DNA of 64,000 bases from an uncultured Chloroflexia bacterium (GCA_963768655.1 CAVYIM010000004.1:640001-704000), one strand, 5' to 3'; positions 37,962 to 53,891 are shown, counted from the stretch's first letter. Made by a program: numbers and translations. The notes: generated by a model not told the origin, from the letters alone.

Positions 37962-37965
<4 letters not shown>

Positions 37966-39222: not shown

Positions 39223-40095
39223 GTGGAACCGTTGCAGGCGGGCAGAGTCCTTCGAGCCGTTCGGCGCCGTCGCGGACTGACGCAGGTAGAGCTCGCCGCG
39301 CTGGCTTCGGTGGCTCAGCAGACCGTCTCGCTGCTCGAACGCGGCAAGGCCGACGACTCGACCTTGCGCACGATCAAGAAGGTCGCCGCCCCACTGGGGA
39401 TCACCGTCGGCGTGGTTCTCCGATGGAAAGGACCCGAGCTCGATCGGCTCTTGGACGCCCGACACGCCGGGCTCGTGAAGGCAGTCGTGTCCCGGCTCGG
39501 CGAGGGTTGGCAGGTTGTCGTCGAGTACACGTTCAATCGCTATGGCGACCGCGGATCGGTGGATGTCCTGGCCTGGCACGCAAGCGCACGAGCGCTCCTC
39601 CTGATCGAGGTCAAGTCGGAGCTGGATAGTGTCGAGGCCGTGCTGAGATCGATGAACACGAAGTCGAGGGTCGTGCCGGAGCTGCTGGCCAACGATCCAG
39701 GCTGGCACGCGAAATCGATCGCGTCGATTCTGGTGCTGCCGGACGAGTCCACGGCACGCCCCGCAGTCGATCGGATGAGCCCGGTCTTCGACGTTTCCTT
39801 CCCTGGGCGGACGGTAGCGATCCGCAGGTGGCTTCGGAAGCCCGCCGAACACCTGCGCGGTGTCTGGTTTCTGGCAGATACGCGTACCAGGCGTGTTGCA
39901 CGCAACCCGGGCAGCGCAGGACGGGTCTGTCACCCAGGTCGAATCGGGATCCACGCTCGCGAAGAAGCTGCCCCGTCGACACAAGGGCCGACGGTGACTC
40001 CTCATCGACCCAACCTGCAGCCAACACGCCTACCAGGCGTAGCTGACGGAAACGGCCGCGGTTCCGCGCCGGATACCACCGCCAGGCGTAGCTGA
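39223..40095 (+). CDS. XRE-family HTH protein with C-terminal PD-(D/E)XK nuclease-like domain
   Basis: LTQVELAALASVAQQTVSLLERG; VEYTF...GSVDVLAW...LLIEVKS (E..D..ExK); low-complexity tail runs into the repeats. Confidence 0.75.
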   Translation: MEPLQAGRVLRAVRRRRGLTQVELAALASVAQQTVSLLERGKADDSTLRTIKKVAAPLGITVGVVLRWKGPELDRLLDARHAGLVKAVVSRLGEGWQVVVEYTFNRYGDRGSVDVLAWHASARALLLIEVKSELDSVEAVLRSMNTKSRVVPELLANDPGWHAKSIASILVLPDESTARPAVDRMSPVFDVSFPGRTVAIRRWLRKPAEHLRGVWFLADTRTRRVARNPGSAGRVCHPGRIGIHAREEAAPSTQGPTVTPHRPNLQPTRLPGVADGNGRGSAPDTTARRS

Positions 40096-40108
40096 CGGAA
40101 ACGGCCGC
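40025..40108 (+). repeat. Tandem pair of the 28-bp repeat family (period 49 bp)
   Basis: CCAGGCGTAGCTGACGGAAACGGCCGC identical at 40033 and 40082. Confidence 0.9.
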
Positions 40109-40186
40109 CGTTCCGGGCCGCGGTTCCGGGCCTCATACCGCGACTGTCGGCAACGGACGGAACGGCTCCGGCCCAGCCGGCTTCCC

Positions 40187-40240
40187 GGGCCATTCGGCCC
40201 GCACCCAGGGGACTCCTGTCCCTATGCGCAACTGCGCATA
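40187..40240. promoter_or_regulatory. Two DosR-like boxes plus putative ArsR operator
   Basis: GGGCCATTCGGCCC (40187), GGGACTCCTGTCCC (40209), perfect inverted repeat TATGCGCA-AC-TGCGCATA (40223-40240). Confidence 0.6.
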
Positions 40241-40258
40241 TATCCAACACTGCACGGC

Positions 40259-40642
40259 ATGGACGAGGTCTACAAGCTCCAGGCGGAAGTCCTGAAGACG
40301 CTCTCGAATCCGCGGCGGCTGGAGATCATCCACCTCCTCGCCGACGGTCCTCGTGAGGTCTGCAGGCTCGCCGAGGAAATGGGCATCAGCCAGCCCAACG
40401 TCTCGCAGCATCTGGCGCTCATGCGCTCAGCCGGAGTCGTCGAGGCGGAGCGCGATGGGCGCGAGGTGCGGTATCGGCTGAGCGATCCCGAGATCATCTG
40501 CGCCTGCGAGACGATGCGCGGCGTCCTCGTGCGCCGGCTATCGCGCATCTCGGCGGTCGCCACGCGCACCCCTGCCGAAGTCGTGGCCGGGCGCGCTGCG
40601 GCCGCCGCCGCCCAGACCGCCGCCGACCGGCCATCCAGCTGA
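40259..40642 (+). CDS. ArsR/SmtB family regulator (Cys-containing, possible persulfide sensor)
   Basis: LSNPRRLEII, SQPNVSQHLA, RDGREVRYRL, IICACE. Confidence 0.92.
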   Translation: MDEVYKLQAEVLKTLSNPRRLEIIHLLADGPREVCRLAEEMGISQPNVSQHLALMRSAGVVEAERDGREVRYRLSDPEIICACETMRGVLVRRLSRISAVATRTPAEVVAGRAAAAAAQTAADRPSS

Positions 40643-40650
40643 GGACCCCA

Positions 40651-41064
40651 ATGGACGAAACCATCTCGATCGTGCTCTTCTCCGGCACCGACGACAAGCT
40701 CCAGGCCGCCGCCGTCCTCGCCGCCGGGGCCGCCGCCCTGGGCCGGCCGGTCAAGATCTTCCTCCAGTATTGGGCGCTCGACGCCTTCCGGGCCGATCGA
40801 ATCATGTCCGACCACGGCCTGGCGCCTGAAGCTGGGGAGGCCGGCCGGGCCGCCGTCGACGCCGCCGCGAAGGCCGGCCAGGCTCGCTGGACTGACACAC
40901 TGCGCGCGGCCAAGGAGATCGGCGAGGTCGATATCCAGGCCTGCTCGCTCTCCATGGACATTCTCAAGCTCGAGCAGTCGGATCTGGATCCGCTCGTGGA
41001 CGGCGTCGAGGGTGTGGCAGCTTTCTACATCAATGCCGGCGAGGGCCAGATCATTTTCATCTAG
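40651..41064 (+). CDS. DsrE/DsrF-like sulfur-relay protein
   Basis: SIVLFSGTDDK, IQACSLSM, EGVAAF, terminal IIFI. Confidence 0.85.
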   Translation: MDETISIVLFSGTDDKLQAAAVLAAGAAALGRPVKIFLQYWALDAFRADRIMSDHGLAPEAGEAGRAAVDAAAKAGQARWTDTLRAAKEIGEVDIQACSLSMDILKLEQSDLDPLVDGVEGVAAFYINAGEGQIIFI

Positions 41065-41134
41065 GAAACGAGAATCCGGTACCGCGCGGTGGCGGTCCGG
41101 AGCGCGACCACTTGCTGCGAAAGGACAGGACCAG

Positions 41135-41371
41135 ATGAGCAGTCTCGATATCAAGCTCAAGGTCGACGCCAGCGGCCTCTCGTGCCCGCTGCCGATTCTC
41201 AGGGCGACCCAGGGCATCAAGACCGTTGCCTCCGGCGAGCTCATCGAGGTCGTGGCAACGGACCCGGGCTCGGTCAAGGACTTCGCTGCATGGTCGGCCT
41301 CGACCGGCAACGCGCTCGTCGAGCAGGACTCCGCCAACGGTAAGTTCCGCTTCGTCCTTCGCCGCAAGTAG
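41135..41371 (+). CDS. tusA: Sulfurtransferase TusA family
   Basis: VDASGLSCPLP, ATDPGSVKDF..W. Confidence 0.92.
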   Translation: MSSLDIKLKVDASGLSCPLPILRATQGIKTVASGELIEVVATDPGSVKDFAAWSASTGNALVEQDSANGKFRFVLRRK

Positions 41372-41427
41372 GCCCACCCTTCCGGGCGTGGGGGCAGCCC
41401 GGCCGTCAGGAACGAAAGGATGCGAAT

Positions 41428-41925
41428 ATGCCCGCAGAGGCAGCCAGCAAGACCAAGAAGGTCTGCATCATCGCCTACAGTGGCGAGCTAGAGCCGACCT
41501 GGGCCTCCATGATCATCGCCTCGACCGCGGCCGCCATGGACATGGAGGTCTCGATCTTCGTGACGTTCTGGGGATTCCACGCCCTCGTGAAGGACAGCAG
41601 GCGTCTACCCGGCCGGAACTGGATGCAGAAGATGCTATCCGTCATGCAGAGGCCGGGGATCAGCCACCGCAAGCTCAGCAAGATGAACTTCATGGGCATG
41701 GGCCCGTGGATGATGTTCCAGCTCGCCAAGCAGTACAACGTCTCCAAGCCCAAGGACCTTCTCGCGATGTGCCAGGAGCTCGGGGTCAAGATCTACCCGT
41801 GCCAGATGACCATGGACCTCTTCGGGCTCAAGAAGGAGGACCTGATCGACGGCCTCGAGGATCCGGTCGGCGCGGCGACGATGCTGCAGCTGTCGACCGA
41901 GGCCGACTCCACGCTGTTCATCTAG
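41428..41925 (+). CDS. DsrE2-like sulfur-relay protein
   Basis: IFVTFWG, LSKMNFMGMG, YPCQMTMD, VGAAT, terminal TLFI. Confidence 0.88.
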   Translation: MPAEAASKTKKVCIIAYSGELEPTWASMIIASTAAAMDMEVSIFVTFWGFHALVKDSRRLPGRNWMQKMLSVMQRPGISHRKLSKMNFMGMGPWMMFQLAKQYNVSKPKDLLAMCQELGVKIYPCQMTMDLFGLKKEDLIDGLEDPVGAATMLQLSTEADSTLFI

Positions 41926-42062
41926 CCAATTCTGCGGGGGCCATCGGCGAGAAGCCCCTGGGGTGTTGACCGCAACCTGACGGTCGCTGGGCCACGCGCC
42001 GCATGGCGCGCGCAACGCGACGCCCGGGGCGGAACGGACCGGCGAGCCCGTACACTGCCGCC

Positions 42063-42977
42063 ATGATCGACTTCACGCCCAACCCTGTTGCCCTGGGACT
42101 CGGCCCGCTCGAGATCCGCTGGTACGGCCTCGCGTACGTGGCCGCAATCGCCGCCGGGACCTGGCTCGCCTTCCGCCTTGCGCGCCAGCGCGGTGAGCGC
42201 ACCGACATGCTCATCGATGGCCTGATCATCGTCGCCGTTGCGGCCCTCGTCGGCGGACGGGCGTATCACGTCATCGATCAGTGGGCCTACTACCAGAACC
42301 ATCTTGCCCAGATTGTCCTGCCGCCGTACAGCGGCCTGGGCATCTACGGTGGACTGTTCACGGGCATGCTGGCGGTTACCTGGCTCGTCCGTCACTACCA
42401 CGTCTCGTTCTGGCGCTGGGCCGACATCCTGGCCCCGTGCATCTTGCTGGCCCAGGCAGTAGGTCGGTGGGGCAACTATATGAACCAGGAGCTGTACGGC
42501 CCGCCGACGAACCTGCCCTGGGGCATCGCCATCCAGTGCCAGTACCGCGTGGCCGAATACGCCTGTCCGGCCGGTTCCGATCCGACGGCGACGCTCGGAC
42601 AGCATTTCACGCCGCTCTTCCTCTACGAGTCGATGCTGAGCCTGCTCGGCGTCGGCGTGATGCTCTTGCTGTGGCGCCGCTTCACGGCGCGGCGCCGCCT
42701 GCTCATCGCCGGCGATGTCGGCCTGCTCTACTTCGTCTGGTATGGCGTCGAGCGCAGCATTCTCGAAACGCTCCGCAGCGGGTGGAACTGGACTTTCTTT
42801 GGTCTCGCGACGGCGCAGATCGTGGGCCTGAGCGCGGCCGCCGCGGCGATCGTCGCCATTCTCGTTCGGCACTGGTGGGTGCGGCGTCACCCCGAGGGAG
42901 CCGATGGCGCTCCGGCTGAGGCCGCGCCACAGCTGGCAACCGCAGGGCCGAGATCGGGGTCAATCGAGATCGCGTAA
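42063..42977 (+). CDS. lgt: Prolipoprotein diacylglyceryl transferase
   Basis: IRWYG, GGRAYHV, GLGIYGG, QAVGRWGNYMNQELYG, PLFLYES. Confidence 0.9.
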   Translation: MIDFTPNPVALGLGPLEIRWYGLAYVAAIAAGTWLAFRLARQRGERTDMLIDGLIIVAVAALVGGRAYHVIDQWAYYQNHLAQIVLPPYSGLGIYGGLFTGMLAVTWLVRHYHVSFWRWADILAPCILLAQAVGRWGNYMNQELYGPPTNLPWGIAIQCQYRVAEYACPAGSDPTATLGQHFTPLFLYESMLSLLGVGVMLLLWRRFTARRRLLIAGDVGLLYFVWYGVERSILETLRSGWNWTFFGLATAQIVGLSAAAAAIVAILVRHWWVRRHPEGADGAPAEAAPQLATAGPRSGSIEIA

Positions 42978-42986
42978 CGTCGACCG

Positions 42987-43349
42987 CTAGCGGAGGACGA
43001 AGATGCTCGTCAGCAGGATGAGCAGCACGGTCAGAGTTATGGCCGTGTAGAGCCGGTCCCCCTCGAGCGCGAAGCCCAGCACCGATGCCGCGACTCGTGT
43101 TACCGGTGTCGCCAGCAGGACCAGAAGGCCCAGCTGGACGACGGCGGCGGGTTCCAGGGCGGCCAGCCGGTCCGGCAGGTTGGAGAAGTTCGTCGTGGCG
43201 GCTGTGGATGCGGGTGCCGTACCCAGGAGCGAGCCCTGCCAGCCGACCGCCAGCGCCGCCGCGAAGCCGGCCCCGATGAGAGCCGCGCTGACGACCACGC
43301 CGGCGATCAGCACTGCACTGATCACCATTCTGAAACGCTCCGGCGTCAC
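42987..43349 (-). CDS. DUF1634 membrane protein
   Basis: QLGLLVLLATPVTRV; usual partner downstream of TSUP genes. Confidence 0.82.
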   Translation of the reverse strand: MTPERFRMVISAVLIAGVVVSAALIGAGFAAALAVGWQGSLLGTAPASTAATTNFSNLPDRLAALEPAAVVQLGLLVLLATPVTRVAASVLGFALEGDRLYTAITLTVLLILLTSIFVLR

Positions 43350-44188
43350 AGCCCGAACCCCAGACCACGGCCGATCGTCTCGATCCCGACAACCACGAGC
43401 ACCGGAAGAAAGACGAGCCGAACAGTGCGGTTCGATATCCGATGGAGAATCCTGGCGCCGATCAGCGCCCCGGCCAGCACGCCGAGCGCCACGGGAGCCG
43501 CTACCTGCGGGTCGATGTAACCACGACCCAGGTAAATGCCTGCCGAGGCTGCCGCCGTCACACCGATCATGAAGTTGCTCGTTGCCGAGCTGACCTTCAT
43601 CGGCAGGCGCATTGCTCCATCCATGGCGAGAACCTTGAGCACTCCAGAGCCGATCCCGAGCAGTCCGGACACCAGGCCTGCTATCCACATCAGCACGAAC
43701 CCGAGCGGAACGCGCCGCGCCGCGTACGGAACGTCGCGGTTCAGCTTGCGGTCCGGATAGGAGGACTCGAGACGAAGACGAGATGCCAGCACCGACGGCA
43801 GATCGACGGGCGGCGTCTCTTCTCCCATGCGCGCAACCTGCATGCCCGCCGATGCGAGCAGGATGATCCCGAGCAGCAGGTAGAGCAACGCCGGCGCCAC
43901 CGCGGCCGCCAGGAGTGCGCCGCAGACCGCCCCTGTGGTCGTCGCCAGCTCGAGAAACATGCCAACCCGCATGTCGGTCATGCGATCCCGGACATAGGCG
44001 GCGGCGGCGCCGGAGCTCGTGGCGATGACGGACACGATGCTCGCTCCTGCGGCCAGGTGGATGTCCACGCCGAAGCCGAACGTCAGGGCCGGGATGACCA
44101 GGATGCCGCCACCGACCCCCGCCAGAGCGCCTATGAGCCCTGCGGCGACACTGATCGCGAATACCCCAAGATCCGCAGCCGGGCTCAT
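43346..44188 (-). CDS. TSUP/TauE-SafE sulfur-compound exporter
   Basis: GVGGG, SVIATSSGAA, GLLGIGSG, KVSSATSNFMIGVTA. Confidence 0.92.
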   Translation of the reverse strand: MSPAADLGVFAISVAAGLIGALAGVGGGILVIPALTFGFGVDIHLAAGASIVSVIATSSGAAAAYVRDRMTDMRVGMFLELATTTGAVCGALLAAAVAPALLYLLLGIILLASAGMQVARMGEETPPVDLPSVLASRLRLESSYPDRKLNRDVPYAARRVPLGFVLMWIAGLVSGLLGIGSGVLKVLAMDGAMRLPMKVSSATSNFMIGVTAAASAGIYLGRGYIDPQVAAPVALGVLAGALIGARILHRISNRTVRLVFLPVLVVVGIETIGRGLGFGL

Positions 44189-44228
44189 CGGGACAGCACT
44201 GCCATGTTGTCGCCCCTAGATCTGCAAC

Positions 44229-44244
44229 TTGCGCAAGTACGCAA
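44229..44244. promoter_or_regulatory. Putative ArsR operator in tauE/rhodanese divergent promoter
   Basis: TTGCGCAAGTACGCAA, 12/16 identical to ATGCGCAACTGCGCAT at 40224. Confidence 0.55.
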
Positions 44245-44351
44245 CTGCTGGTATCTTAGCTGACGCTCGGCGAGTTCGCCTGGTGATCCGCGACCGGGGT
44301 CACCGGTTCGTGGCGCACCAGGAACCACTCCACGTTGCATTGGAGCTGCTC

Positions 44352-44687
44352 GTGCATCTCTTCGCTCGGAACCCGACCCCTGAGATCGGAGTCGACGAGC
44401 TCGAGGATCTTCTCCGGCACGGAAGCGTGCGCGTCCTGGGTGTGCGCGAGGACTGGGAATTCCGCCGCGGCCGAGTGCCCGGGGCGATCAGCGTTCCACT
44501 GGGCCGCCTGGCGTCACAAGGGGAGGAGCTGCCGCGCGACAAGCCCTGGGTGGTCATCTGCCAGAGCGGCAACCGCAGCCTGGCGGCAACGGAGCTCCTG
44601 CTGAGCCGGGGCTTCGATGGCGCTGTCTCCGCCCGCGGCGGCACGAATGCCTGGGCTCGGGGCAATCGGCCGTTGGAGAGGGGCTGA
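44352..44687 (+). CDS. Single-domain rhodanese
   Basis: GVREDWEF..GRVPGA, active loop CQSGNRS, GGTNAW; GGAG before GTG 44352. Confidence 0.88.
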   Translation: MHLFARNPTPEIGVDELEDLLRHGSVRVLGVREDWEFRRGRVPGAISVPLGRLASQGEELPRDKPWVVICQSGNRSLAATELLLSRGFDGAVSARGGTNAWARGNRPLERG

Positions 44688-44688
44688 C

Positions 44689-45318
44689 GTGGTCACCGAT
44701 CAGCGCCGGCTGGAATGGGACGAGCGCCACCGGGCAGGCGACTTCGAAGGCGAGGGGCCGAACTCCACCCTCATGCTGGGCCTGATGGGGCTGCGCCCGG
44801 GCAGTGCCCTGGAGCTTGCGTGCGGCAGCGGCACCAACGCCGTCTGGCTGGCCCGGCAGGGCTGGCGCACCACTGCCGTCGATTGGTCGCCAGTCGGTCT
44901 CGCCAATGGCAGATCCAAAGCGGACGAAGCCGGTGTTCAGGTCGATTGGCTGGAGCGCGATCTGTTCGCCTGGTCGCCGCCGGCCCGTCAGTTCGACCTG
45001 GTCGCCATCGTCTACCTGCACCTGCCGCCCGACGAACGCGGCCCTGCCTACTCGCGGGCCGCCGCGGCCGTGGCTCCCGGAGGGCGAATGCTTGTCGTGG
45101 GTCACGATCGCTTGCACGGCGCCGAGGGTCAGGGCGGACCCGATCCAGAGCGCCTGTTCACGGCCGACGAGATTGCCGCGGAGCTTCAGGCAGCCGATCC
45201 GGAGCTCGTCGTGGAACGGGCGGAAGTCGTGCGCAGGGTACCGTGGCCGGGCCGAGGCCCCATCGATTCACTTCTCATCGTCCGCCGTCCCCCAACTCGT
45301 GCGGCCCAGGCAGGATAG
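44689..45318 (+). CDS. Class I SAM-dependent methyltransferase (TehB-like)
   Basis: ALELACGSGTNAVWLA, VDWS, FDLV, APGG. Confidence 0.88.
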   Translation: MVTDQRRLEWDERHRAGDFEGEGPNSTLMLGLMGLRPGSALELACGSGTNAVWLARQGWRTTAVDWSPVGLANGRSKADEAGVQVDWLERDLFAWSPPARQFDLVAIVYLHLPPDERGPAYSRAAAAVAPGGRMLVVGHDRLHGAEGQGGPDPERLFTADEIAAELQAADPELVVERAEVVRRVPWPGRGPIDSLLIVRRPPTRAAQAG

Positions 45319-45319
45319 C

Positions 45320-45802
45320 GTGGGCTCGCAGCGGCTTCCCGACCTGGGCCGGCGTGGGGAGGGCTGGTTCCTGATGCAGCTCGTCCTCTTCGGCGCCATC
45401 GCCCTCGCCGGCACCGTTGGTCCGATCTGGAGCGGCTGGCCCAGGCTGGCCAGCGTCCTTGTCGGCGCGGTTCTGCTCGGCTGCGGCGGGGTCCTGTCCC
45501 TGCGCGGAGTCCTGGACCTGCGCGAGAACCTGACGCCTTTTCCCAGGCCGCTGCCAGGCGCCCGTCTCGTCGAGTCGGGGGCCTACCGGCTGGTCCGACA
45601 TCCGATCTACGGCGGCTTGGTGCTCGGCGCGGCGGGCTGGGGTCTGCTGACGGCCTCCGCCCTGGCCCTGCTCGGCACCCTGGTGCTGGTGGCCTTCTTC
45701 GATCTCAAGTCGCGCCGCGAGGAGATCTGGCTATCCGCCCAGTTCGAGGACTATGGCACGTACAGGAGCCGGACCCGGCGGCTGCTACCCTGGCTCTACT
45801 AG
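45320..45802 (+). CDS. ICMT/PEMT-family membrane methyltransferase
   Basis: LVESGAYRLVRHPIY, KSRREE..L, YGTYRSRT. Confidence 0.85.
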   Translation: MGSQRLPDLGRRGEGWFLMQLVLFGAIALAGTVGPIWSGWPRLASVLVGAVLLGCGGVLSLRGVLDLRENLTPFPRPLPGARLVESGAYRLVRHPIYGGLVLGAAGWGLLTASALALLGTLVLVAFFDLKSRREEIWLSAQFEDYGTYRSRTRRLLPWLY

Positions 45803-46407
45803 CGGTTCTTGTTGACCAGAGTCCGACCCGACGCCTGCCAGGCGTTCATCCCGCCCGTCAGGTTCCAGACATTGGTGTAGCCGAGGTTCAGGAGCGTCTG
45901 GGCGGCCTGGGCGCTCTGAACCCCGCTCCGGCAGTAGACCAGGATCTTGGCGTTCTTGTCGGCTGGCAACTCCGAAGCCCGTGCCGTCAGCTGGTCGTAG
46001 GGGATGTAGAGATCAGTGCCGTCGATCTCGCCGCTGTACGGCGTCTTCACGTTGATCAGCGTGAAATCCTTGTCCTGGAGCATCTGGGCCAGCTGGTCGG
46101 GAGTCACGTTGGTCCACGTGGAGACGCGCGTGGGACCCGCTGCTCCCAACTGGCTCGCGCTGGCGAGCACCGTCCCTGTGGCGGTCGAACTGCCACCCTG
46201 GTTGGCGATCGCGCCCATCACGAAGTCGGCGGCAATTACGACCACTGATATCAGAACGAGCGTGACGATGAGGAGGCCCATCTGGCCGCGTCCGCCCATC
46301 TGTGACGGGGGCGCCGGGCGCGGCGCTCGAGGGGCCTGGCTCGAGCTGTCAGGCTGCGGCGCGATTCGGCCTGCCTTCTCCGGATGCTGGCGACGCTTCG
46401 AAGTCAC
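45799..46407 (-). CDS. Membrane-anchored rhodanese
   Basis: Single N-terminal TM helix; YCRSGVQS loop; LTGGMNAW. Confidence 0.88.
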   Translation of the reverse strand: MTSKRRQHPEKAGRIAPQPDSSSQAPRAPRPAPPSQMGGRGQMGLLIVTLVLISVVVIAADFVMGAIANQGGSSTATGTVLASASQLGAAGPTRVSTWTNVTPDQLAQMLQDKDFTLINVKTPYSGEIDGTDLYIPYDQLTARASELPADKNAKILVYCRSGVQSAQAAQTLLNLGYTNVWNLTGGMNAWQASGRTLVNKNR

Positions 46408-46440
46408 GATCCCATCTCCATCGGTCCTGAAGGATCGTAA

Positions 46441-47580
46441 CTACCCGCGCAAGCGGATCGCGATCAGAGCAACAGGCCGGTACAGGACGTGGGCGAACTT
46501 GCCGAACGGCACCAGAAGCACGAGGGCCATCGCGACGCCGACGTGAAGCAGGAACATCGGGTAGCCCCATGCCGGAGCCGAGGGCAGGTAGAGCCCGAGC
46601 TCCAGCAAGAACCCGGTCACACCCGCCACCCACAGCATTCCCAGGAACGTCCAGTCGGGCGTGGTCGAGTGCAGGCTGGATCGATCGCTCTTGCGCAACC
46701 GTCGGACGATCAGCACCGTTGTGCCATAAATGAGGGCTGCTCCTGCCAGAGTGCCAAGCAGGCGCACCGGGTACCAGATCGGCACCGGCGTCCCGGTCGC
46801 CTTCAGGCCCAGGAGCTCGAGTCCGTAGTCGGCCATCGTGGCGCCCAACAGGCCCAGGAAGCCCCACATGGTCGTGAAATGGATGAACCAGCGCTGCAGG
46901 TACCACGGCCGAGATTCGGTCGCGTCGGCACACTCCTGCCGGAAGCGCGTCTGCGCGAGCGATTCGGTGCCCACGGCGTAGACAACGGCGTCGGCCGCTC
47001 TGCGGACGCCGGGTCTGCCAATCGTCTTGCCCTGGCCGCGGCCGACGTGCCGGATCATCTCGAACAGGCCGGCAAGCGCCGCCACTCCCATGATCGCCAT
47101 GACGCCCACACCCAGGTTGTGGACGAAGTCAGACGGGACGAACTGGAAGAGGGTCAGCGTCGAGCCGTCTGTCGGGCCATGGACGGAATACATGAAGGCC
47201 GCGAGGAGGCCGACGAGGGCAACGATGAAGACGCCGGCGAACCAACGCGACGTAGCCAGGAGGTAGGCCAGGTGGGTTCGGTCGTAGCTGGCCACGGCAT
47301 AGCGGCGGGCCGCGTGCATGAACGAGGCCGGATCGGCCTGGGTCGGGCAGCTCTCGCTGCACTCGGCGCAGCCGTAACAGGCCCACAGCTCCGGGCTGGA
47401 CAGCAGCTGGTCGCGGAGACCGAGCTGAGCGTAGCGGGCCATGCGTCGCGGGAACGAGGCTCCATCCACGGAGAGCGGACAGATGGCCGTGCAGACGCCG
47501 CAGTTGAAGCACGCGGAGATGTCGGTGGCGCCGAAGCGACGCAGATCCGGATAGAGGTTGTGGTCGACTCGGGCGGTCAC
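46441..47580 (-). CDS. QmoC-like protein (HdrC-like 2x[4Fe-4S] + cytochrome b membrane domain)
   Basis: CFNCGVCTAICP, CYGCAECSESCP, about 6 TM helices with His (WFIH, LLHV, GKFAH). Confidence 0.88.
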   Translation of the reverse strand: MTARVDHNLYPDLRRFGATDISACFNCGVCTAICPLSVDGASFPRRMARYAQLGLRDQLLSSPELWACYGCAECSESCPTQADPASFMHAARRYAVASYDRTHLAYLLATSRWFAGVFIVALVGLLAAFMYSVHGPTDGSTLTLFQFVPSDFVHNLGVGVMAIMGVAALAGLFEMIRHVGRGQGKTIGRPGVRRAADAVVYAVGTESLAQTRFRQECADATESRPWYLQRWFIHFTTMWGFLGLLGATMADYGLELLGLKATGTPVPIWYPVRLLGTLAGAALIYGTTVLIVRRLRKSDRSSLHSTTPDWTFLGMLWVAGVTGFLLELGLYLPSAPAWGYPMFLLHVGVAMALVLLVPFGKFAHVLYRPVALIAIRLRG

Positions 47581-47828
47581 GGCCGGGCCTCCTTTTGCAC
47601 GGCGAAGTACCGGAAGTAGCCCTCGGGCGTGGCTTCCTTGACCTCGCGCACGTAGCCGTAGCGGCGCATGCCCATGACCCAGTACATGGCCTCGTTGGCC
47701 GGACGCCCGATCGCCTCCGCGATCTCGGGAACGGTGTGGGGCCCGTCGGCGAGGACCCCGAGGATGCGGTCCCGCATGAATGGCTCCTCTCGGACGATCT
47801 CTCGAACGTCCCTGTTGGCTGACGTCAT
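47577..47828 (-). CDS. Small winged-HTH-like protein embedded in the hdr operon
   Basis: 83 aa, GPHTVPEIAEAIG..YWVMGMRRYG; overlaps both neighbours by 4 bp. Confidence 0.75.
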   Translation of the reverse strand: MTSANRDVREIVREEPFMRDRILGVLADGPHTVPEIAEAIGRPANEAMYWVMGMRRYGYVREVKEATPEGYFRYFAVQKEARP

Positions 47829-49591
47829 GCGATCGCCTCCTCGAGCAGGCCGTCGATCATGGCCGTGATCTGGGCGTCGGTGTAGCCGCGCAGGTCGATG
47901 GCGTTCTCCGGGCAGATAGGGACGCATCCACCGCAGCCCTTGCAGCCGGTCTGGCTGATCGCGGCGACCTCACGGCCGTTGAGCGACAGCTTCTCAATGG
48001 CGCCATAGGGGCAGGCGTTCTCGCACTTGCCGCACCAAGTGCATCTGTCCGGGTCCACCGTGGCCACTAGCGGGTCGAGCTCGGCGACTCCCTTCTTCAG
48101 CACCGAGGCGCTCTGGGTCACTGCGGCCAGACCCGAAGCCACGCTCTCCGCGGAGCTCTTGGGCCCCTGGCAGGCACCGGCGATCAGGACGCCGTCGACG
48201 ACGGTCTCGACCGGGCGCAGCTTGGGGTGGATCTCGTTGAAGAAGCCGTCGCTGCCGAGGGGCAGCTTGAGCAAGCCCACGAGGTCTTTGTTCTCGCGGG
48301 GGACCATGCCGGTGACCAGGACCACGAGGTCGACCGGAATCTCCAGTTCCTCATCGCCCGAGAGCAGGTCCCGGACGGTGACCGCCAGCCCGCCGGACCG
48401 GTCCGCGGTGACGACCGGTGGGGCGTCGTCGGGGTACTTGACGTAGACGGCGCCGTCCTTGCGGGCCTCGGTGTACAGGAGCTCGAGCGAGCCGTAGGTC
48501 CGGATGTCTCGATAGAGGTGGTACTGCCGCATCCCGGGGTCAAGCTCGGAGACTCGGATGGACGAGTGAGCCGTCGCCGCACAGCAGTACCGCGAGCAAT
48601 ACTCGTTGCCGTCTGGCTGGCGGCTGCCCACGCAGTAGATGTAGGCGACGCTGCGAACCGGCCTGTCGTGATAGCGCAGCTGTCCGTCGGCCCCGTCGAT
48701 CATCTCCTTGAACTCGGGCAGGGCCACGACACCGTCCATTCCGGCACCGAACTCACCATCGGCCGGCTGGTAAGAGTCGAAGCCGGTGGCGACGATGATC
48801 GAGCCGACCTCGATCGGGATCGTCTGTAGGGGATCGCCGTCGATTTGGACGCCGACCTGGTAGTTTCCGAAGCTGCCCGACTTGCTGACGACCTCGGCGC
48901 CGGTGAAGACCTTGATTGCTGGCCTCTTCCTGACCTCGGCGACGAGATGGTCGATCAGCTCGCGGCCGTTGCGCTCGTGCGGGTAGGTATTCCCGAAGCG
49001 TCCGACCCAGCCGCCCAGCTCACGCTCGCGCTCTACCAGGAAGACGCCCAGACCGACGTCGGCCAGGCCGATCGCGGCGCGGAGGCCGGAGATTCCACCA
49101 CCGATCACCAGGGCCTTCTGGGCCGTTTCGACCACGATCGGTTCCAGGGGTTCGCTCAGGCGGGTGCGGGCAATGACCCCGCGGACGAGGCCGATGGCCT
49201 TGCGGGTGGCCCCGGCAGGATCGTCGGTGTGAGTCCACGAGCATTGCTCGCGAATGTTGGCCTGGCTGTACTCGTAGGGGTTGAGCCCCGCGCGTTTGGC
49301 CACGCCACGGAAGGTCACGACGTGGAGCTTGGGCGAACAGGAGGCGACGACGAGGCCGTCGAGTCCCTGCTGCTCGATGTCCTGTTCCATCTCCTGCTGG
49401 CCCGCGTCAGAACAGGCGAACATCGTGTGCTTGGCGACGACGACGCCTGGCTCGTTCTTGACGGCGTCGACGACGGCCTGGACATCCACGTAGTCCGAGA
49501 TGTTGCCGCCGCAGTGGCAAACGTAGACACCGATTCGTCGCGCGGTCGGGCTCGGCGAAGCGAACGGGTGATCCTGCGAGAGCTCGCTCAT
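47825..49591 (-). CDS. hdrA: HdrA-family flavoprotein (QmoB-like, no fused MvhD)
   Basis: VYVCHCGGNI, ASCSP, IREQCSW, GGGISG, YCVGSR..YCSRYCC, C-terminal 2x CxxCxxCxxxCP. Confidence 0.88.
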   Translation of the reverse strand: MSELSQDHPFASPSPTARRIGVYVCHCGGNISDYVDVQAVVDAVKNEPGVVVAKHTMFACSDAGQQEMEQDIEQQGLDGLVVASCSPKLHVVTFRGVAKRAGLNPYEYSQANIREQCSWTHTDDPAGATRKAIGLVRGVIARTRLSEPLEPIVVETAQKALVIGGGISGLRAAIGLADVGLGVFLVERERELGGWVGRFGNTYPHERNGRELIDHLVAEVRKRPAIKVFTGAEVVSKSGSFGNYQVGVQIDGDPLQTIPIEVGSIIVATGFDSYQPADGEFGAGMDGVVALPEFKEMIDGADGQLRYHDRPVRSVAYIYCVGSRQPDGNEYCSRYCCAATAHSSIRVSELDPGMRQYHLYRDIRTYGSLELLYTEARKDGAVYVKYPDDAPPVVTADRSGGLAVTVRDLLSGDEELEIPVDLVVLVTGMVPRENKDLVGLLKLPLGSDGFFNEIHPKLRPVETVVDGVLIAGACQGPKSSAESVASGLAAVTQSASVLKKGVAELDPLVATVDPDRCTWCGKCENACPYGAIEKLSLNGREVAAISQTGCKGCGGCVPICPENAIDLRGYTDAQITAMIDGLLEEAIA

Positions 49592-52305
49592 GCCGGCACC
49601 TTCTGGCTTTCGAGATGGGCCGCGACCTGGGCTACCGCAGCGCCGGCGTGGACGATCGAGTCGGCGATGTCCTTGGCACCGGACGCCGTGCCGGCGACGA
49701 ACACCCCAGGGATGCTCGTGCGTCCGGGGTCGATGTCGTCGTACGACTCGGCGACGTAGTGGTATTCGTCGAGGGCGAGGTCGTCGCCGATGAAGAGCCG
49801 CTCGACCTCACGGTTCGGCTGAACGCCGACCGCCAGCACGACCAGGTCGTACTCGGCCTCGACCAGCGCCCCGCCATGCTCGATGTCCTCGTAGCGCAGG
49901 ATCAGGTTGCCGTCTTCCTTCTCTGTGATCTTCGCTACCCGACCCTTGACGTACGTCGCGCCCATCGACTTGGCGCTCTCGTAGAACTCGTCGTAGCGCT
50001 TGCCCGGCGCCCGAATGTCCATGTAGTGGACCGTGACTTCGGCGAGCGGTAGAGCGCCCATGATCAGCTGGTTCTGCTTGATGGAGTACATGCAGCAGAA
50101 CCGTGAGCACAGAGGGTTTCCGACGGTCTCGTCGCGCGAGCCGGTGCACAGAACGTAGGCGATCCGTTCCGGGATCTTCCCGTCGCCGGGCCGCAGCACG
50201 GTGTTGTACGGCCTCGTGGGAGCGAGCAGGCGGTCCATCTGCATGCCGGTGATCACGTTCTTGAATCGGCCATAGCCGTATTCGGGCTTCAGATCCGCCG
50301 CGAACAGCTTGTAGCCGGTGGCGACGACCACGGCGCCGACGCGGACCTCCTCGACCTTCTCCCGCATCTCGAGGTGGATGGCGTCGGACGGGCAGGCCAC
50401 GACGCACGCCCGGCATTCCGAGCAGACGCCGCAGTCCAGGCAGTCGCCCGCGCTGGCCCGGGCCTCGGCTTCGCAAAGGGGCGCTTCGATCTCGGCGAAG
50501 TCGCGCGGCGAGCGGGCACCGGCGCCGGGGCCAGCCCGGAGCGGCCCGCTGTGGTTGTCGTAGTGCGCCTGGCGGGCGATGACTTTCGACTTGTCGACCA
50601 GCGGCAGCAGGTCGTCCATTTCGAACCCGTCGAGCGGCTCGCCGCGCAGCCAGCGGTCGATCATGTGGGCCGCCCGCCGGCCCTGCCCGACGGCGCGGGT
50701 GATGTCCGAGGCGCCGGTCGTAACGTCGCCAGCGGCGAAGATGTGAGGAACGGCCGTCTGGAGAGTATGCGGATCGGCGGCGACAGCGCCGTTCGGAGTG
50801 GCGGCCACCTGAGCGCCGAAGGCCGCGCCTTCGGGCGCCATTCCGATCGCCACCAGCACCGTGTCGCAAGGGATGACGAACTCGCTGCCCCTGACGGGCT
50901 CGGGGCGGCGACGGCCCGAGGCATCGGGCTTGCCCAGAGCCGTGCGCTGGCAGCGGAGACCGGTGACCTTGCCCGCGGCATCGCCGAGGACCTCTACCGG
51001 GGCGACCTGGAATGCGAAGCGGACACCATCCTGCTCGGCGTCGTCGACCTCGGCCCTGTGGGCGGGCATCTCCCCGCGGCCGCGACGGTAGGCGATCGTG
51101 GTCTCGGCGGCGCCGAGGCGGACGGCCGTTCGGGCCGCGTCCATGGCGACATTGCCGCCGCCAACGACCACGACACGCTTCCCGGTAAGATCGCCGCCGG
51201 AGCCGAGCTTCGTCGCCCGCAGGAACCGCAGGCCGCCGACGATGCCGTCGAGTGTCTCGCCCGGCACGTTGAGGGCCGTGGAGAGCGGGGTGCCGGTCGC
51301 GACCAGGACGGCGTCGAAGCCTTCTCGACGGAGGGCTTCGAGGTCGCCGACCGGCGAATTGGTGGCGATCTCAACGCCGACGGCGGTGACGTTGGAGATG
51401 TCCTGCTCGACGACCTCGGGCGGGAGACGGTATGCCGGGATGGCCAGGCGCAGGAAGCCGCCGGCAACGGGCGCGGCCTCGAAGATCTTGACACCGTAGC
51501 CCCGGCGAGCCAGCTGCCAGGCGGCGGTCAGTCCCGCCGGGCCGGAACCCACGACGGCGACGCGCTTGCCGTTGCTCGGCGGGACTTCCACGCCGGGTCC
51601 GTCCGTCGCTTCGTAATGCCTGTCGGCCGCGAAGCGCTTCAGGCGCCGGATCGGAAGAGTTCCCTCGAGCGAGCCGCGCGTACACTCGCCCTCGCACGGG
51701 GCGTAGCAGGCGCGACCGAGCGTGCCGACGAGCGGCGTCGCCTCGAGCACGAGCTGGAACGCCTTCTCATACTCGCCGCTGCGGATCAGCGACACGTAGC
51801 CGTGGGCCTTGATTCCGGCGGGACAGCTGAAGGTGCACGGTGAGGTTCCGGCGCGCTCGAGGACGGCTTTCTTGGGCACTGCCTGCGGGAACGTGATGTA
51901 GGCAGCCCGGCGGGCGACCAGGTCGGCGTTGAACTGGTCTGGCACCGCGACCGTGCAGGCGGTTTCGCACAGCTGGCAGCCGGTGCAGGCCGCCTCATCG
52001 ACAAAACGTGGCTTCTGACGGATGGTTGCCCTGAAGGTGCCGTCGCCATCGCGAGTGATGCCGTCCACCTCGGTATAGGTGAGGGCGGTCACGTTCGGGT
52101 GGTGGATCGAGGCCGCCATCTTCGGCGTGGAGATGCAGCTGGCGCAGTCCAGGGTGGGGAAGACCTTGCTGAGCAGGATCATCCGCCCGCCCACGCTGGC
52201 CTCCTTCTCCACCAGCAGGACCTTGTAGCCCATGTCGCCGAGCTTGAGGGCGGACTCCATGCCGGCAATGCCGCTGCCGACGACGAGGGCGTCGTAGTCG
52301 GTCAT
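49588..52305 (-). CDS. HdrL-like protein: HdrA core with inserted GltD-like NAD(P)H oxidoreductase
   Basis: GSGIAG, FPTLDCASC, CTGCQLC; insert PCTFSCP, CYAPCEGEC, GSGPAG, GGGNVAMD, YRR; then CLDCGVCSECRAC, LCTGSR, CSRFCCMYSIK. Confidence 0.9.
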   Translation of the reverse strand: MTDYDALVVGSGIAGMESALKLGDMGYKVLLVEKEASVGGRMILLSKVFPTLDCASCISTPKMAASIHHPNVTALTYTEVDGITRDGDGTFRATIRQKPRFVDEAACTGCQLCETACTVAVPDQFNADLVARRAAYITFPQAVPKKAVLERAGTSPCTFSCPAGIKAHGYVSLIRSGEYEKAFQLVLEATPLVGTLGRACYAPCEGECTRGSLEGTLPIRRLKRFAADRHYEATDGPGVEVPPSNGKRVAVVGSGPAGLTAAWQLARRGYGVKIFEAAPVAGGFLRLAIPAYRLPPEVVEQDISNVTAVGVEIATNSPVGDLEALRREGFDAVLVATGTPLSTALNVPGETLDGIVGGLRFLRATKLGSGGDLTGKRVVVVGGGNVAMDAARTAVRLGAAETTIAYRRGRGEMPAHRAEVDDAEQDGVRFAFQVAPVEVLGDAAGKVTGLRCQRTALGKPDASGRRRPEPVRGSEFVIPCDTVLVAIGMAPEGAAFGAQVAATPNGAVAADPHTLQTAVPHIFAAGDVTTGASDITRAVGQGRRAAHMIDRWLRGEPLDGFEMDDLLPLVDKSKVIARQAHYDNHSGPLRAGPGAGARSPRDFAEIEAPLCEAEARASAGDCLDCGVCSECRACVVACPSDAIHLEMREKVEEVRVGAVVVATGYKLFAADLKPEYGYGRFKNVITGMQMDRLLAPTRPYNTVLRPGDGKIPERIAYVLCTGSRDETVGNPLCSRFCCMYSIKQNQLIMGALPLAEVTVHYMDIRAPGKRYDEFYESAKSMGATYVKGRVAKITEKEDGNLILRYEDIEHGGALVEAEYDLVVLAVGVQPNREVERLFIGDDLALDEYHYVAESYDDIDPGRTSIPGVFVAGTASGAKDIADSIVHAGAAVAQVAAHLESQKVPA

Positions 52306-52748
52306 GACTTCGCTCCGGCAGATCGGAGCGCAATCAAAGCTTCCGAGAACTGGTTCATGTGCCTGGCGAAGTTCTCGGCGCAGACCGAGCAGATGGCCGC
52401 CATCTTCAGCCGCTGCGGTGAGAGGCCCTCCGACTTCAGCAGCGTCTGTGCCTCGGCGACGATCCTCGACGCCCGCCTGGCGCAGTCGGGCAGGTAGGCG
52501 CACTCGTCCCCGTCCGAGGCGATGAAGACGCCCTCGAATCCCTGCTTGATGGCGTGAAGGATCCACGACGGACGGATGCCGCTGGTGCAGGGCACGCTGA
52601 TGACGCGTACCCCGGGCGAGTAGTGCAGGTGGGCGCTGCCGGCCAGGTCGATGCCCGGGTCGGAGATGTTGTTGGTGGAGAACACGAGAATCCGCGGTGC
52701 TGGCGCCGGGACCTTCTCGTCCACCGGGGCGGCGGCGAGCGCGGTCAT
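52302..52748 (-). CDS. mvhD: MvhD/FlpD-like iron-sulfur subunit (atypical Cys pattern)
   Basis: GIDLAG...VRVISVPCTSGI..WILHA..GFEGVFIA..ECAY, RLKM; position in hdr operon. Confidence 0.8.
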   Translation of the reverse strand: MTALAAAPVDEKVPAPAPRILVFSTNNISDPGIDLAGSAHLHYSPGVRVISVPCTSGIRPSWILHAIKQGFEGVFIASDGDECAYLPDCARRASRIVAEAQTLLKSEGLSPQRLKMAAICSVCAENFARHMNQFSEALIALRSAGAKS

Positions 52749-52821
52749 CGATCCAATGCTCCTGCGTGGGTTTGAGAAGGCCGAGCCGAAGGGGCGGCCT
52801 GCCGATCGAGAGCCCGGTCGA

Positions 52822-53085
52822 CTACTTGCCGCGCCGAATGAAGACGCGGTCGTAGCCGTCAGCCTCGATGACACCGAGAAATTCGTGGCCTACCTTGTCT
52901 GCCCATGCGCCCATGTCCGTCTTGGTGACGGGGTCGCTAGACCAGACCTCGATGACGTCGCCCACGGCGACCTTGCCCATGCCCTTCTTGGCCTCGAGGA
53001 GCGGGCCCGGGCATGCGGAACCGCGGGCGTCGATGATCTCGGCGGCTGATATCGTTTCGAGCTCGGCTACGTTCAGGGCGCTCAT
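52822..53085 (-). CDS. tusA: Sulfurtransferase TusA family
   Basis: IDARGSACPGP, SSDP..W..KVGHEF. Confidence 0.92.
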   Translation of the reverse strand: MSALNVAELETISAAEIIDARGSACPGPLLEAKKGMGKVAVGDVIEVWSSDPVTKTDMGAWADKVGHEFLGVIEADGYDRVFIRRGK

Positions 53086-53108
53086 GGCTCTCTCCGTATG
53101 TGGGTGGA

Positions 53109-53474
53109 CTAGTAGGTCAGGGCGTTGGTGGCCGAGGTCAGCTCGGCGACGAACCGCGCGGCGGCCACGACCTCCGCGTTCTCGACCAGCTGAGTGGCCG
53201 TGTCGATCTGGCGCGACTTGACGCACGGTCCGCAGATGAGGATCTTGCCGCCCAGCTCGCGGTAGTCGTTCATGAGCTTGGCAAGCGGCGGGAACCCCTC
53301 GGCCGCGACCGAGTCGGCGCGTCCCTTGACCGCGATCTCTACACCATCTGCCTGGAGCCCGATGACCGCTTCGACATCCGAGACCAGGGCGGCGACTGCC
53401 ATCACGAAGGGGATCGTGACGTGCTCGGGATGATCCGGACCGTGCGTGACCATGAAGAGCAGCTTTTCGGACAT
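53109..53474 (-). CDS. DsrE family protein
   Basis: THGPDHPE..IPF, LQADGV, ICGPCVKSR. Confidence 0.88.
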   Translation of the reverse strand: MSEKLLFMVTHGPDHPEHVTIPFVMAVAALVSDVEAVIGLQADGVEIAVKGRADSVAAEGFPPLAKLMNDYRELGGKILICGPCVKSRQIDTATQLVENAEVVAAARFVAELTSATNALTY

Positions 53475-53516
53475 CGGTTCTCATTGCCTCCAATGGGTGA
53501 CGATACGATCGGGTGG

Positions 53517-53891
53517 TCAGAGCGTGGGTTCGATTGCCTCGGGGGTCGCCTGCGTCGAGCTCTCGAATGAAGCGGCCAGATCGCCGAGCCGGGCGATCCG
53601 CCGGATGAGCACCTGCCGCATCAGCCCGCACGCGGCCACGATCTCGGGATCGGCGAGCCGGTATCGGACCTCGCGGCCGTCTCGCACGGCTTCAACGATG
53701 CCGACGCCACGAAGAGCTGCGAGGTGCTGGGAGATGGCTGGCTGCGGCATGCCGAAGTGTTCGGCGAGCTTGCGGACCTCGACCGGGCCCGCCTCGCCCA
53801 GATAGTGGACGAGCTCCAACCGCCGTGGGCTGGCCAGCGTCTTTAGGAGGGTGGCCTGCAGGGCGTATATGCCGTCGGCCGGTCGCAACAT
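53517..53891 (-). CDS. ArsR/SmtB family regulator
   Basis: LASPRRLEL, QPAISQHLA, RDGREVRYRL, VAACG. Confidence 0.92.
   Translation of the reverse strand: MLRPADGIYALQATLLKTLASPRRLELVHYLGEAGPVEVRKLAEHFGMPQPAISQHLAALRGVGIVEAVRDGREVRYRLADPEIVAACGLMRQVLIRRIARLGDLAASFESSTQATPEAIEPTL

Follow-up and report, generated by a model that had tools for sequence, protein, structure and literature searches.

What does a complex of the Qmo/Hdr type work on when no catalytic partner is encoded beside it? Such complexes hold a central place in sulfate reduction, methanogenesis and flavin-based electron bifurcation, and to our knowledge each of them has so far been tied to a known catalytic partner, be it AprAB, HdrB or LbpA/sHdr. 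The question is raised by a 64,000-nucleotide stretch of DNA from an uncultured Chloroflexia bacterium (G000:C4:640001-704000; 'the window' below), which holds a sulfur-relay island at positions 40259-53891. The genome (3.37 Mb in 9 contigs, ~69% G+C) is 88.6% complete, with 0.6% contamination. We identified genes by Pfam and NCBIfam matches, by translation and by our own profile scan of the window, and told genuine genes from shadow open reading frames (ORFs) by third-position G+C. Every gene class named in a preliminary description of the island was found in or near its expected place, namely two ArsR regulators, three DsrE-type carriers, two TusA proteins, two rhodaneses, TauE with a DUF1634 protein, and two methyltransferases; an lgt gene, which that description had not listed, also lies within the island. 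Judged from its sequence, the core of the minus-strand operon appears to be a widespread, uncharacterised Qmo-like complex linked to TusA and DsrE, here in a form that contains HdrL.

The operon and its conservation

The operon runs in the order arsR2-dsrE-tusA2-mvhD-hdrL-hdrA-wHTH-qmoC-rhodanese from 53891 to 45799 on the minus strand. All four junctions from mvhD to qmoC overlap by 4 nt and the remaining gaps measure 23-73 nt; this tight packing fits the earlier reading of the run as one operon. The first gene, arsR2 (53517-53891), encodes an ArsR/SmtB-type regulator of 124 aa with one Cys (HTH_5, E 3e-13), and is followed by dsrE (53109-53474), whose 121-aa product (PF02635; Pfam DsrE, E 1e-13) has a CxxC motif formed by Cys81 and Cys84. 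The tusA2 gene (52822-53085; 87 aa, CPGP motif; Pfam TusA, E 3e-18) lies directly upstream of mvhD (52302-52748), a separate gene for a 148-aa MvhD-like [2Fe-2S] protein (Pfam FlpD, E 7e-29), whose Cys120 and Cys123 recur in 98% of the 84 sequences aligned.

Two HdrA-related flavoproteins follow. HdrL (49588-52305; 905 aa; Pfam Pyr_redox_2, 4e-43, and Fer4_20; NCBIfam PRK12771, 467.6 bits) consists of the HdrA flavin domain (residues 289-566 of 5odc_A plus an N-terminal piece), without the N-terminal domain and without the C-terminal ferredoxin domain of HdrA. Its residues ~141-650 form an NfnB/GltD-type NAD(P)H/FAD module (NfnB 4ylf_B, 3e-81) with HdrA segments on both sides, which supports the NAD(P)H link proposed earlier for the complex. 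The cluster motifs Cys108-118 and Cys623-639 flank this module, indicating that it is inserted within the inserted ferredoxin domain of HdrA. The second flavoprotein, HdrA (47825-49591; 588 aa; 5odc_A, E 2e-117), aligns through residues 18-249 to 12-243 of 8rvu_a and through residues 250-585 to 310-652 of 5odc_A. It thus has all HdrA domains except the inserted ferredoxin domain, with a ferredoxin domain at its C terminus, and its cluster cysteines are invariant (37 sequences).

Between hdrA and qmoC lies a gene (47577-47828) for a cysteine-free, 83-aa winged helix-turn-helix protein (wHTH), which matched no Pfam or NCBIfam family. Its AlphaFold2 (AF2) model has a predicted local distance difference test score (pLDDT) of 85.6, and the best folds are SmtB/ArsR-type winged helices at low sequence identity; it may be a subunit or a regulator. 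The QmoC-like subunit (46441-47580; Pfam Fer4 families and Nitrate_red_gam) joins an N-terminal HdrC-like domain (8rvv_C, E 8e-14), with two CxxCxxCxxxCP motifs, to a membrane domain that matches the NarI family weakly. Among 103 homologues eight Cys are 100% conserved and His154, His234, His346 and His364 are conserved in 93-100%, as would be needed to bind two [4Fe-4S] clusters and two b haems. A ninth cysteine, Cys217 (motif RQEC, in the cytoplasmic loop before the His234 helix), is present in 99% of these 103 module-linked proteins and is not invariant in the wider QmoC alignment; it could be a contact site for a thiol or persulfide.

The operon ends with a membrane-anchored rhodanese (45799-46407; Rhodanese, E 1e-14), which has one N-terminal hydrophobic helix and the active loop CRSGVQS. 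The preliminary description had noted that the carriers keep their active cysteines, and indeed these are 100% conserved in both TusA proteins (Cys25 of TusA2 in 98 sequences; Cys17 of TusA1, encoded in the plus-strand cassette described below, in 80), in the three DsrE types (Cys81 of the operon DsrE in 40; Cys98 of carrier A and Cys125 of carrier B, both of the plus-strand cassette, in 28 and 39) and in the two rhodaneses (the soluble rhodanese 1 in 26; Cys159 of the membrane-anchored one in 24). Cys84 of DsrE is conserved in 95% of its 40 sequences.

Within the genus the operon was present in 12/12 loci, of which seven have the HdrL form and five an HdrA of ~40% identity with no HdrL match (the short form). 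Across the phylum, a QmoC-like match (E ≤1e-20) was found in 18 of 401 sampled Chloroflexota genomes. We examined 14 of these loci, and 12 of them have the module (tusA-mvhD-...-wHTH-qmoC), ten from the class and two from other families. In the other two, the most distant, QmoC is 27-29% identical and a canonical Qmo lies directly beside aprA, with no tusA or wHTH match. One of the 12 (L060, G384:C3) keeps arsR-dsrE-tusA, a partial mvhD, wHTH and qmoC, with ~350 nt where hdrL and hdrA are expected, and looks like a decayed operon.

A profile-based scan of all species genomes returned at least 586 relatives. The best 80, which were kept, belong by their record titles to Chloroflexota, Actinomycetota, Bacteroidota, Ignavibacteria, NC10, Acidobacteriota, Desulfobacterota, Spirochaetia, Planctomycetales and Heimdallarchaeota. 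Counts were taken over loci in which qmoC is preceded by 6 kb or more of sequence, 61 in all, drawn from about ten phyla. The window itself has the co-directional order tusA-mvhD-hdrA-hdrA-wHTH-qmoC which, with dsrE at either end, defines the module. Among the 61 loci wHTH was found in 60, mvhD in 60 and tusA in 59, with arsR leading the module in 33; a dsrE-family gene was present in 57, upstream in 35 and just downstream in 22. The preliminary description had depended on such conservation of the carriers beside the complex in other genomes, and on this point it stands. The exceptions were L068, L085 and L116 (no dsrE match), L108 (no module) and L142 (no tusA or dsrE match). As the operon is kept in every genus locus and its core far beyond, the arrangement is not due to chance.

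The distance from mvhD to wHTH was 3.1-3.7 kb in 40 loci and 4.4-4.7 kb in 18, with L142 (4.1 kb) and L090 (5.2 kb) as outliers. The long (HdrL) form also occurs in Bacteroidota and in one deltaproteobacterial metagenome-assembled genome (MAG). In the short form as found in other phyla, for example in L091, a 466-aa flavin-domain HdrA that retains the insert is paired with a 715-aa full-length HdrA. In one MAG, HdrL and HdrA form a single 1483-aa open frame (L078:5206-9654), which is either a fusion or an artefact of assembly or frame.

A survey of the neighbours at these loci found no further catalytic gene that recurs beside the module. The recurrent neighbours were LysR (15 loci), Crp and PadR regulators, a thioredoxin-YgaP protein (5 loci) and a cysteine desulfurase (6 loci); recurrent clusters of 'unknown' neighbour ORFs were rejected as mostly shadow frames of LysR and other genes (translations, Pfam). 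The sulfur carriers TusA and DsrE are the only conserved partners of this module. We also searched the genomes of 40 of the best 80 loci, picked for phylogenetic spread and mostly outside the genus. AprA over the cut-off was present in 7 of the 40 and DsrA in 8; 9 had one or the other, and 31 neither. The module is found in many phyla without a dissimilatory sulfur pathway. The large subunit of [NiFe] hydrogenase was found in 31 of the 40.

Candidate partners and the direction of electron flow

On sequence comparison, we put at about one half the probability that the operon encodes a TusA/DsrE-linked Qmo-like complex that transfers electrons between quinone, NAD(P)H and carrier-bound sulfane sulfur, most likely in the reductive direction. 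By analogy with the HdrA dimer and with QmoA/QmoB, the two HdrA-type flavoproteins would form the core. QmoC contributes the HdrC-like [4Fe-4S] pair and a dihaem membrane domain, which would face the quinone pool and connect the core to it; the NfnB module of HdrL would connect the core to NAD(P)H, and the inserted ferredoxin domain of the short form would serve ferredoxin. The [2Fe-2S] protein MvhD would be the adaptor at whose side a third partner docks, and electrons would move among menaquinone/menaquinol, NAD(P)H (ferredoxin in the short form) and this partner. Synteny suggests that the third partner is sulfane sulfur, bound as a persulfide to TusA/DsrE, in the place that AprAB holds in Qmo. 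In the reductive direction a carrier persulfide and two electrons would yield carrier thiol and H2S, paid for by NAD(P)H and/or quinol. The reaction could remove reactive sulfane sulfur, or supply sulfide where no sulfate-assimilation genes were found.

The ArsR regulators, with one conserved Cys each, would sense sulfane sulfur, probably through TusA. One C-terminal Cys (PEIxxAC) is conserved in 92-97% of the homologues of the module ArsR proteins (67-77 homologues), and about a third of the homologues have a second; arsR1 encodes three Cys and arsR2 one. Persulfide-sensing ArsR proteins of the SqrR/BigR type have two conserved Cys that form a di- to tetrasulfide bridge. The preliminary description had proposed a distinct system coupling NAD(P)H, quinone and ferredoxin or H2 to sulfane sulfur. 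The Qmo/Hdr-like nature of the complex, its NAD(P)H module, the QmoC ligands and the conservation of the carriers beside it are supported, and the substrate, the direction and the link to ferredoxin or H2 are parts that we infer.

If the complex were an ordinary Qmo/Hdr complex, its catalytic partner, AprAB or HdrCB, would have to be encoded elsewhere. The window contains no HdrB/CCG protein, AprA or DsrA. Searches of the genome, incomplete as it is, found no AprA over the cut-off, DsrA, DsrC or Sat (ATP sulfurylase), and no NIR_SIR-type siroheme sulfite reductase, molybdopterin oxidoreductase or YeeE/YedE transporter. The reading as a canonical Qmo complex for AprAB was rejected on the ground that no AprA was found in the genome, and this variant is largely refuted; 33 of the 40 module-bearing genomes also have no AprA. 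As Sat, NIR_SIR and molybdopterin oxidoreductase were not found, the organism may depend on reduced sulfur sources. Nothing else in the genome supports the S0/polysulfide respiration that had been suggested earlier.

Matches to the HdrB-type CCG domain were found at C3:802989-803639, C4:168860-169576 and C5:31008-31226, all outside the window, and a true hdrB lies beside hdrC at C4:168581-170169. The two genes needed for an HdrCB partner are thus present in the genome. However, this pair is part of a complete and canonical hdrC-hdrB-hdrA-mvhD-mvhG-mvhA-protease cluster (C4:162782-170169), ~470 kb upstream of the window, and so brings an HdrA and an MvhD of its own; apart from this HdrA, the genome has no HdrA homologues but the two of the island. 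The cluster joins a [NiFe] hydrogenase of group 3c type to a heterodisulfide reductase, and its host is not a methanogen. As it is self-contained, it offers no obvious supply of a missing subunit to the island complex, and the island QmoC already has an HdrC-like domain. The earlier statement that the complex lacks HdrB, AprAB and DsrAB is accordingly correct for the window and, as far as the 88.6% complete genome shows, for AprA and DsrA in the genome, but not for hdrCB, which is encoded elsewhere in an operon of its own that does not obviously explain the island complex.

In a Thermoleophilia MAG (L132), a paralogous second module, tusA-mvhD-hdrL-hdrA-wHTH, is followed by genes for an HdrC-like di-cluster protein and a CCG protein and by dsrE2, which shows QmoC to be exchangeable for HdrCB. 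QmoAB-HdrCB forms are known for Qmo complexes serving AprAB, according to the main account of PMC10504309, and they speak for an ordinary Qmo/Hdr complex here too. Taking both sides together, we give an ordinary complex with a partner elsewhere almost no weight. The reading as an sHdr/LbpA system was likewise rejected, because the single GcvH (GCV_H) in the genome lies between gcvT and gcvPA and is thus a glycine-cleavage protein, not LbpA. The genome searches therefore agree with the earlier view that the complex is served by neither AprAB, DsrAB nor an sHdr/LbpA set.

The separate MvhD might instead dock an MvhAG-type [NiFe] hydrogenase, making the complex an H2:quinone/NAD(P)+ oxidoreductase, whether or not sulfur takes part. 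At 33941-39071, immediately ahead of the island, are hypF (33941-36463), hypD and hypE (to 39071), so that hydrogenase maturation genes stand beside an operon containing MvhD; the genome has mvhDGA, and a NiFe large subunit is encoded in most of the module-bearing genomes (31/40). Yet no NiFe hydrogenase match was found in 9 of these 40 genomes, which means that H2 cannot be the general partner. Moreover, no hydrogenase gene recurs beside the module, and the MvhAG of this genome has its own MvhD and HdrABC in one operon. Docking of a hydrogenase is, in our view, highly improbable.

Could the module be independent of sulfur altogether, and catalyse electron transfer such as that from NAD(P)H to quinone or ferredoxin, with TusA and DsrE acting only as sensors or co-sensors with ArsR, or feeding cofactor or thiolation pathways? 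Longer relatives of TusA2 (137 at E ≤1e-8, 120 of them listed) bear on this point: 25 of the 120 listed are ArsR-TusA fusions of ~200 aa, which speaks for this reading. Tandem TusA-TusA proteins are also among those listed, and the fusion and tandem proteins P0316-P0414, P0398, P0296 and P0334 are among the closest of these relatives. The module contains no catalytic sulfur site, and arsR leads it at only 33/61 loci, with LysR (15 loci), Crp or PadR elsewhere. In contrast, tusA (59/61) and dsrE (57/61) persist even without arsR, tusA lies directly upstream of mvhD across phyla, and in one case among the matches listed (P0398, 171 aa) TusA is fused to the C-terminal two thirds of MvhD. In addition, canonical Qmo, which has no carriers, adjoins its substrate enzyme AprAB, so the neighbour would be expected to mark the partner. 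We consider a sulfur-independent module distinctly unlikely.

Several points weigh against carrier sulfane sulfur being reduced by this complex. The module has no obvious catalytic sulfur site (no CCG/HdrB, siroheme or molybdopterin), and its HdrA proteins lack a redox-active CxxC. The ArsR-TusA fusions might be taken as a sign that the role of TusA is confined to sensing and does not extend to substrate delivery. The loci scored for synteny had themselves supplied the profiles and, the genome being only 88.6% complete, its absences are to be read as 'not found' and not as proven. The rhodaneses and the adjoining TauE, an exporter of the sulfite type, would be equally at home in a regulon for the oxidative detoxification of sulfide. 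Finally, at standard potentials, with the persulfide at ~-270 mV, reduction by NAD(P)H plus menaquinol is not clearly favourable, and the opposite direction is as plausible.

This opposite direction is the main rival. In a sulfide-oxidising, reductant-generating complex, sulfide or a carrier persulfide would donate electrons at the MvhD/HdrA side, and these would bifurcate to menaquinone (through QmoC) and to NAD(P)+ (through NfnB; to ferredoxin in the short form). In architecture the HdrA of the module corresponds to bifurcating HdrA, and in Mvh-Hdr, Flx-Hdr and Fdh-Hdr complexes the adaptor on the donor side is MvhD. QmoC is replaceable by HdrCB, both of them high-potential outlets, and the sulfide/S0 couple (~-270 mV) lies between menaquinone (-74 mV) and NADP+ (-320 mV) or ferredoxin; the likeness of TauE and the rhodaneses nearby to oxidative sulfide-detoxification regulons points the same way. 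On the other hand, we know of no chemistry by which a [2Fe-2S] or FeS/flavin site oxidises sulfide onto a carrier thiol, and many carriers of the module are, by record titles, fermentative anaerobes (Bacteroidales, Anaerolineae). Oxidation of sulfide is unlikely, though a real possibility, and electron transfer to carrier sulfane sulfur is the reading that we prefer.

A broader proposal, which we make tentatively and think rather unlikely, is that TusA/DsrE-linked complexes form a new class of sulfur-dependent flavin-based electron-bifurcating (or confurcating) enzymes. Carrier sulfane sulfur/sulfide would then be the middle-potential couple; menaquinone (at QmoC), or a disulfide (at HdrCB, in a soluble form), would be the high-potential partner, and NAD(P)+ (HdrL form) or ferredoxin (short form) the low-potential one. 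Were this the case, the complexes would represent an unrecognised energy-coupled step of the sulfur cycle in at least 10 phyla, including, by record titles, Asgard archaea, soil Chloroflexota and Bacteroidales. Should the carriers serve as substrate, the module would provide an unstudied connection of intracellular sulfane sulfur with the quinone pool and with NAD(P)H or ferredoxin. Such a connection would matter for our picture of hidden sulfur turnover in soils, peat, sediments and digesters, and of the ways in which anaerobes get rid of reactive sulfur or obtain it. With so few genes in the set, the hypothesis lends itself to direct testing with purified proteins.

Accessory genes of the island and their operator-like boxes

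The preliminary description had treated the island as one system, which was not borne out: there are at least four transcription units, with differing conserved operator-like boxes. Outside the core, the island holds accessory genes kept at the level of the genus and under operators of their own, namely a second arsR-dsrE-tusA-dsrE2 cassette, TauE/DUF1634, the soluble rhodanese and the two methyltransferases; only the core of the minus-strand operon is conserved beyond the genus and family.

The second cassette is on the plus strand. It begins with arsR1 (40259-40642), which encodes an ArsR/SmtB-type regulator of 127 aa with Cys35, Cys91 and Cys93 (Pfam HTH_5, E 1e-16), followed by DsrE-type carrier A (40651-41064; 137 aa; DrsE_2 family, Pfam PF13686, E 5e-16), whose active residue is Cys98. 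Next comes tusA1 (41135-41371; 78 aa), identified by its translation, with a CPLP motif, and by a TusA profile (E 3e-33). An 84-aa ORF at 41089-41343 was considered as tusA1 and discarded, having no Pfam match; the real tusA1 is in a different frame. The DsrE2-like carrier B (41428-41925; 165 aa, with Cys125) matches Pfam PF13686 (E 7e-46) and scores 90.6 bits against NCBIfam DsrE2, under the cut-off of 210. Downstream on the same strand, lgt (42003-42977; Pfam LGT, E 1e-57) encodes a prolipoprotein diacylglyceryl transferase, and is probably a bystander because most genus loci have no lgt at that position.

On the minus strand, the gene for a TauE/SafE-family anion (sulfite-type) permease (43346-44188; Pfam PF01925, E 3e-50) is accompanied by that of its partner, a DUF1634 membrane protein (42987-43355; Pfam PF07843, E 4e-22), and the pair is kept in 9/12 genus loci. 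Divergent from it on the plus strand is the soluble rhodanese 1 (44229-44687; Pfam Rhodanese, E 2e-15), with the active loop CQSGNRS. Its profile match begins at 44343, and the true start is probably near 44331. It is followed on the same strand by a class I S-adenosylmethionine (SAM)-dependent methyltransferase (44617-45318), recognised by a GxGxG motif in the translation, with weak NCBIfam matches only (TehB, 31 bits; cut-off 218), and by a membrane methyltransferase of the ICMT/PEMT family (45374-45802; Pfam PEMT, 1e-9, and ICMT, 6e-6), which scores 44.9 bits against the NCBIfam isoprenylcysteine methyltransferase (cut-off 160). The latter is the C-terminal part of a long open frame, with its likely start at 45374. 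The ORF at 44715-45374 was rejected as a gene, since it matches no family and is a shadow frame.

This trio of rhodanese 1, methyltransferase and ICMT-like protein is kept in 10/12 genus loci. The ICMT family includes the methanethiol methyltransferase MddA, and methylation of sulfide or thiols by the island methyltransferases is a lead. A selenium/tellurium reading has as its sole basis TehB-like and selenoprotein-family matches far under the cut-offs (NCBIfam).

About 20 nt upstream of arsR1 lies a perfect palindrome, box 1 (TATGCGCA-NN-TGCGCATA; 40223-40240), a candidate ArsR operator. It is a single site in the 3.37-Mb genome at up to 1 mismatch, and the only one in the window at up to 3. 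Box 1 recurs in 12 related loci, and in the four that were inspected it is upstream of an arsR1-type gene. A different element, box 3 (ACTTGCGCAAG; 44227-44237), in the divergent intergenic region of tauE and the rhodanese, is a candidate operator or promoter element, unique in the genome and likewise recurring in 12 related loci. In genus relatives a third arsR, preceded by box 3, lies between tauE and the soluble rhodanese, and the window (44189-44340) has no such arsR; box 3 being kept without it, a recent loss of the regulator is suggested. A third conserved stretch lies ~100 nt upstream of arsR2. Consensus scans for promoters (0 against 1.2 expected) and terminators (6 against 4.5 expected) gave results at the level of chance.

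Just upstream of box 1 and arsR1, positions 40033-40132 hold imperfect tandem repeats (a 26-nt unit in ~3 copies, then a 13-nt unit), and a relative, L028, has a different short tandem array at this position; tandem repeats inside the island are minor. Between hypF and hypD, a small ORF (36512-36832) may be hypC. Farther upstream in the window, a 969-aa ORF (23588-26497) of the 2-oxoacid:ferredoxin oxidoreductase (POR) alpha/gamma type has a response-regulator receiver domain at residues 202-309, before the POR domains; it may be an unusual fusion, or the ORF may have been called too long.

Comparison with known systems

Among the systems closest to the island complex is canonical (type I) QmoABC, the quinone-interacting membrane-bound oxidoreductase of sulfate reducers and Chlorobi, with which it shares two HdrA-related flavoproteins (island HdrA and HdrL both match 5odc_A) and a QmoC in which an HdrC-like domain with two clusters is fused to a dihaem b membrane domain. 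In canonical QmoB an MvhD-like domain is fused at the C terminus, whereas the island MvhD is encoded by a separate gene upstream of hdrL. The island also differs in having an 83-aa wHTH gene between hdrA and qmoC and tusA and dsrE in the operon, and in having neither aprBA nor sat nearby or in the genome searched, as is true of AprA in 33 of the 40 module-bearing genomes. The aprA-linked QmoC proteins of Chloroflexota are only 27-29% identical to the island QmoC. Both systems nevertheless have an MvhD-type module, and the exchange of QmoC for HdrCB occurs in both, as far as the main account of PMC10504309 goes.

That account also describes a type II Qmo in Ammonifex degensii and 'Ca. Vulcanisaeta moutnovskia', in which HdrA-like QmoAB occur with QmoC (Neukirchen et al. 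2023, PMC10504309). The type II qmoAB genes are closer to hdrA than to bacterial qmoAB, which fits the module as far as a comparison by description allows, and the account in its main part does not mention TusA, DsrE, MvhD or wHTH as partners (PMC10504309). Literature searches, which covered PMC10504309 without its supplement, a part that may bear on the matter, found no published description of tusA-mvhD-hdrA-hdrA-wHTH-qmoC. The accessible text of a Chloroflexi preprint (10.1101/2021.08.23.457424) describes group 3c hydrogenase-Hdr clusters and not the TusA/DsrE-linked module.

The MvhAGD-HdrABC complex of methanogens (PDB 5odc, 8rvu) resembles the island complex in the fold and clusters of HdrA, in the MvhD adaptor and in the HdrC-like di-cluster domain. 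In that complex, however, HdrB with its two CCG domains is catalytic, and the island has no HdrB/CCG protein and no hydrogenase subunits. The island complex leads instead to a dihaem membrane domain, and one of its HdrA proteins carries an NfnB module; a true MvhAGD-HdrABC copy is encoded elsewhere in the same genome (C4:162782-170169). HdrL of Desulfobacterium autotrophicum (Strittmatter 2009, as cited in PMC12142623) is an HdrA with a second NAD(P)H/FAD module. On that citation, it is like the island HdrL in that the HdrA flavin domain is interrupted by a GltD/NfnB-like module and mvhD adjoins, and unlike it in that the island HdrL is encoded together with a further HdrA, a QmoC-like anchor and sulfur carriers.

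The sulfur-oxidising sHdr-LbpA system, like the island, links an Hdr-type complex at the gene level to TusA, DsrE-type carriers and rhodaneses under ArsR-type regulation, as described in the parts of Tanabe et al. 2024 (PMC11094781) available to us, where TusA/DsrE relays are treated for sHdr and rDsr only. The two differ in that the island has no HdrB1B2 or HdrC1C2 and its genome no LbpA, and the island complex has instead a membrane-bound QmoC together with MvhD.

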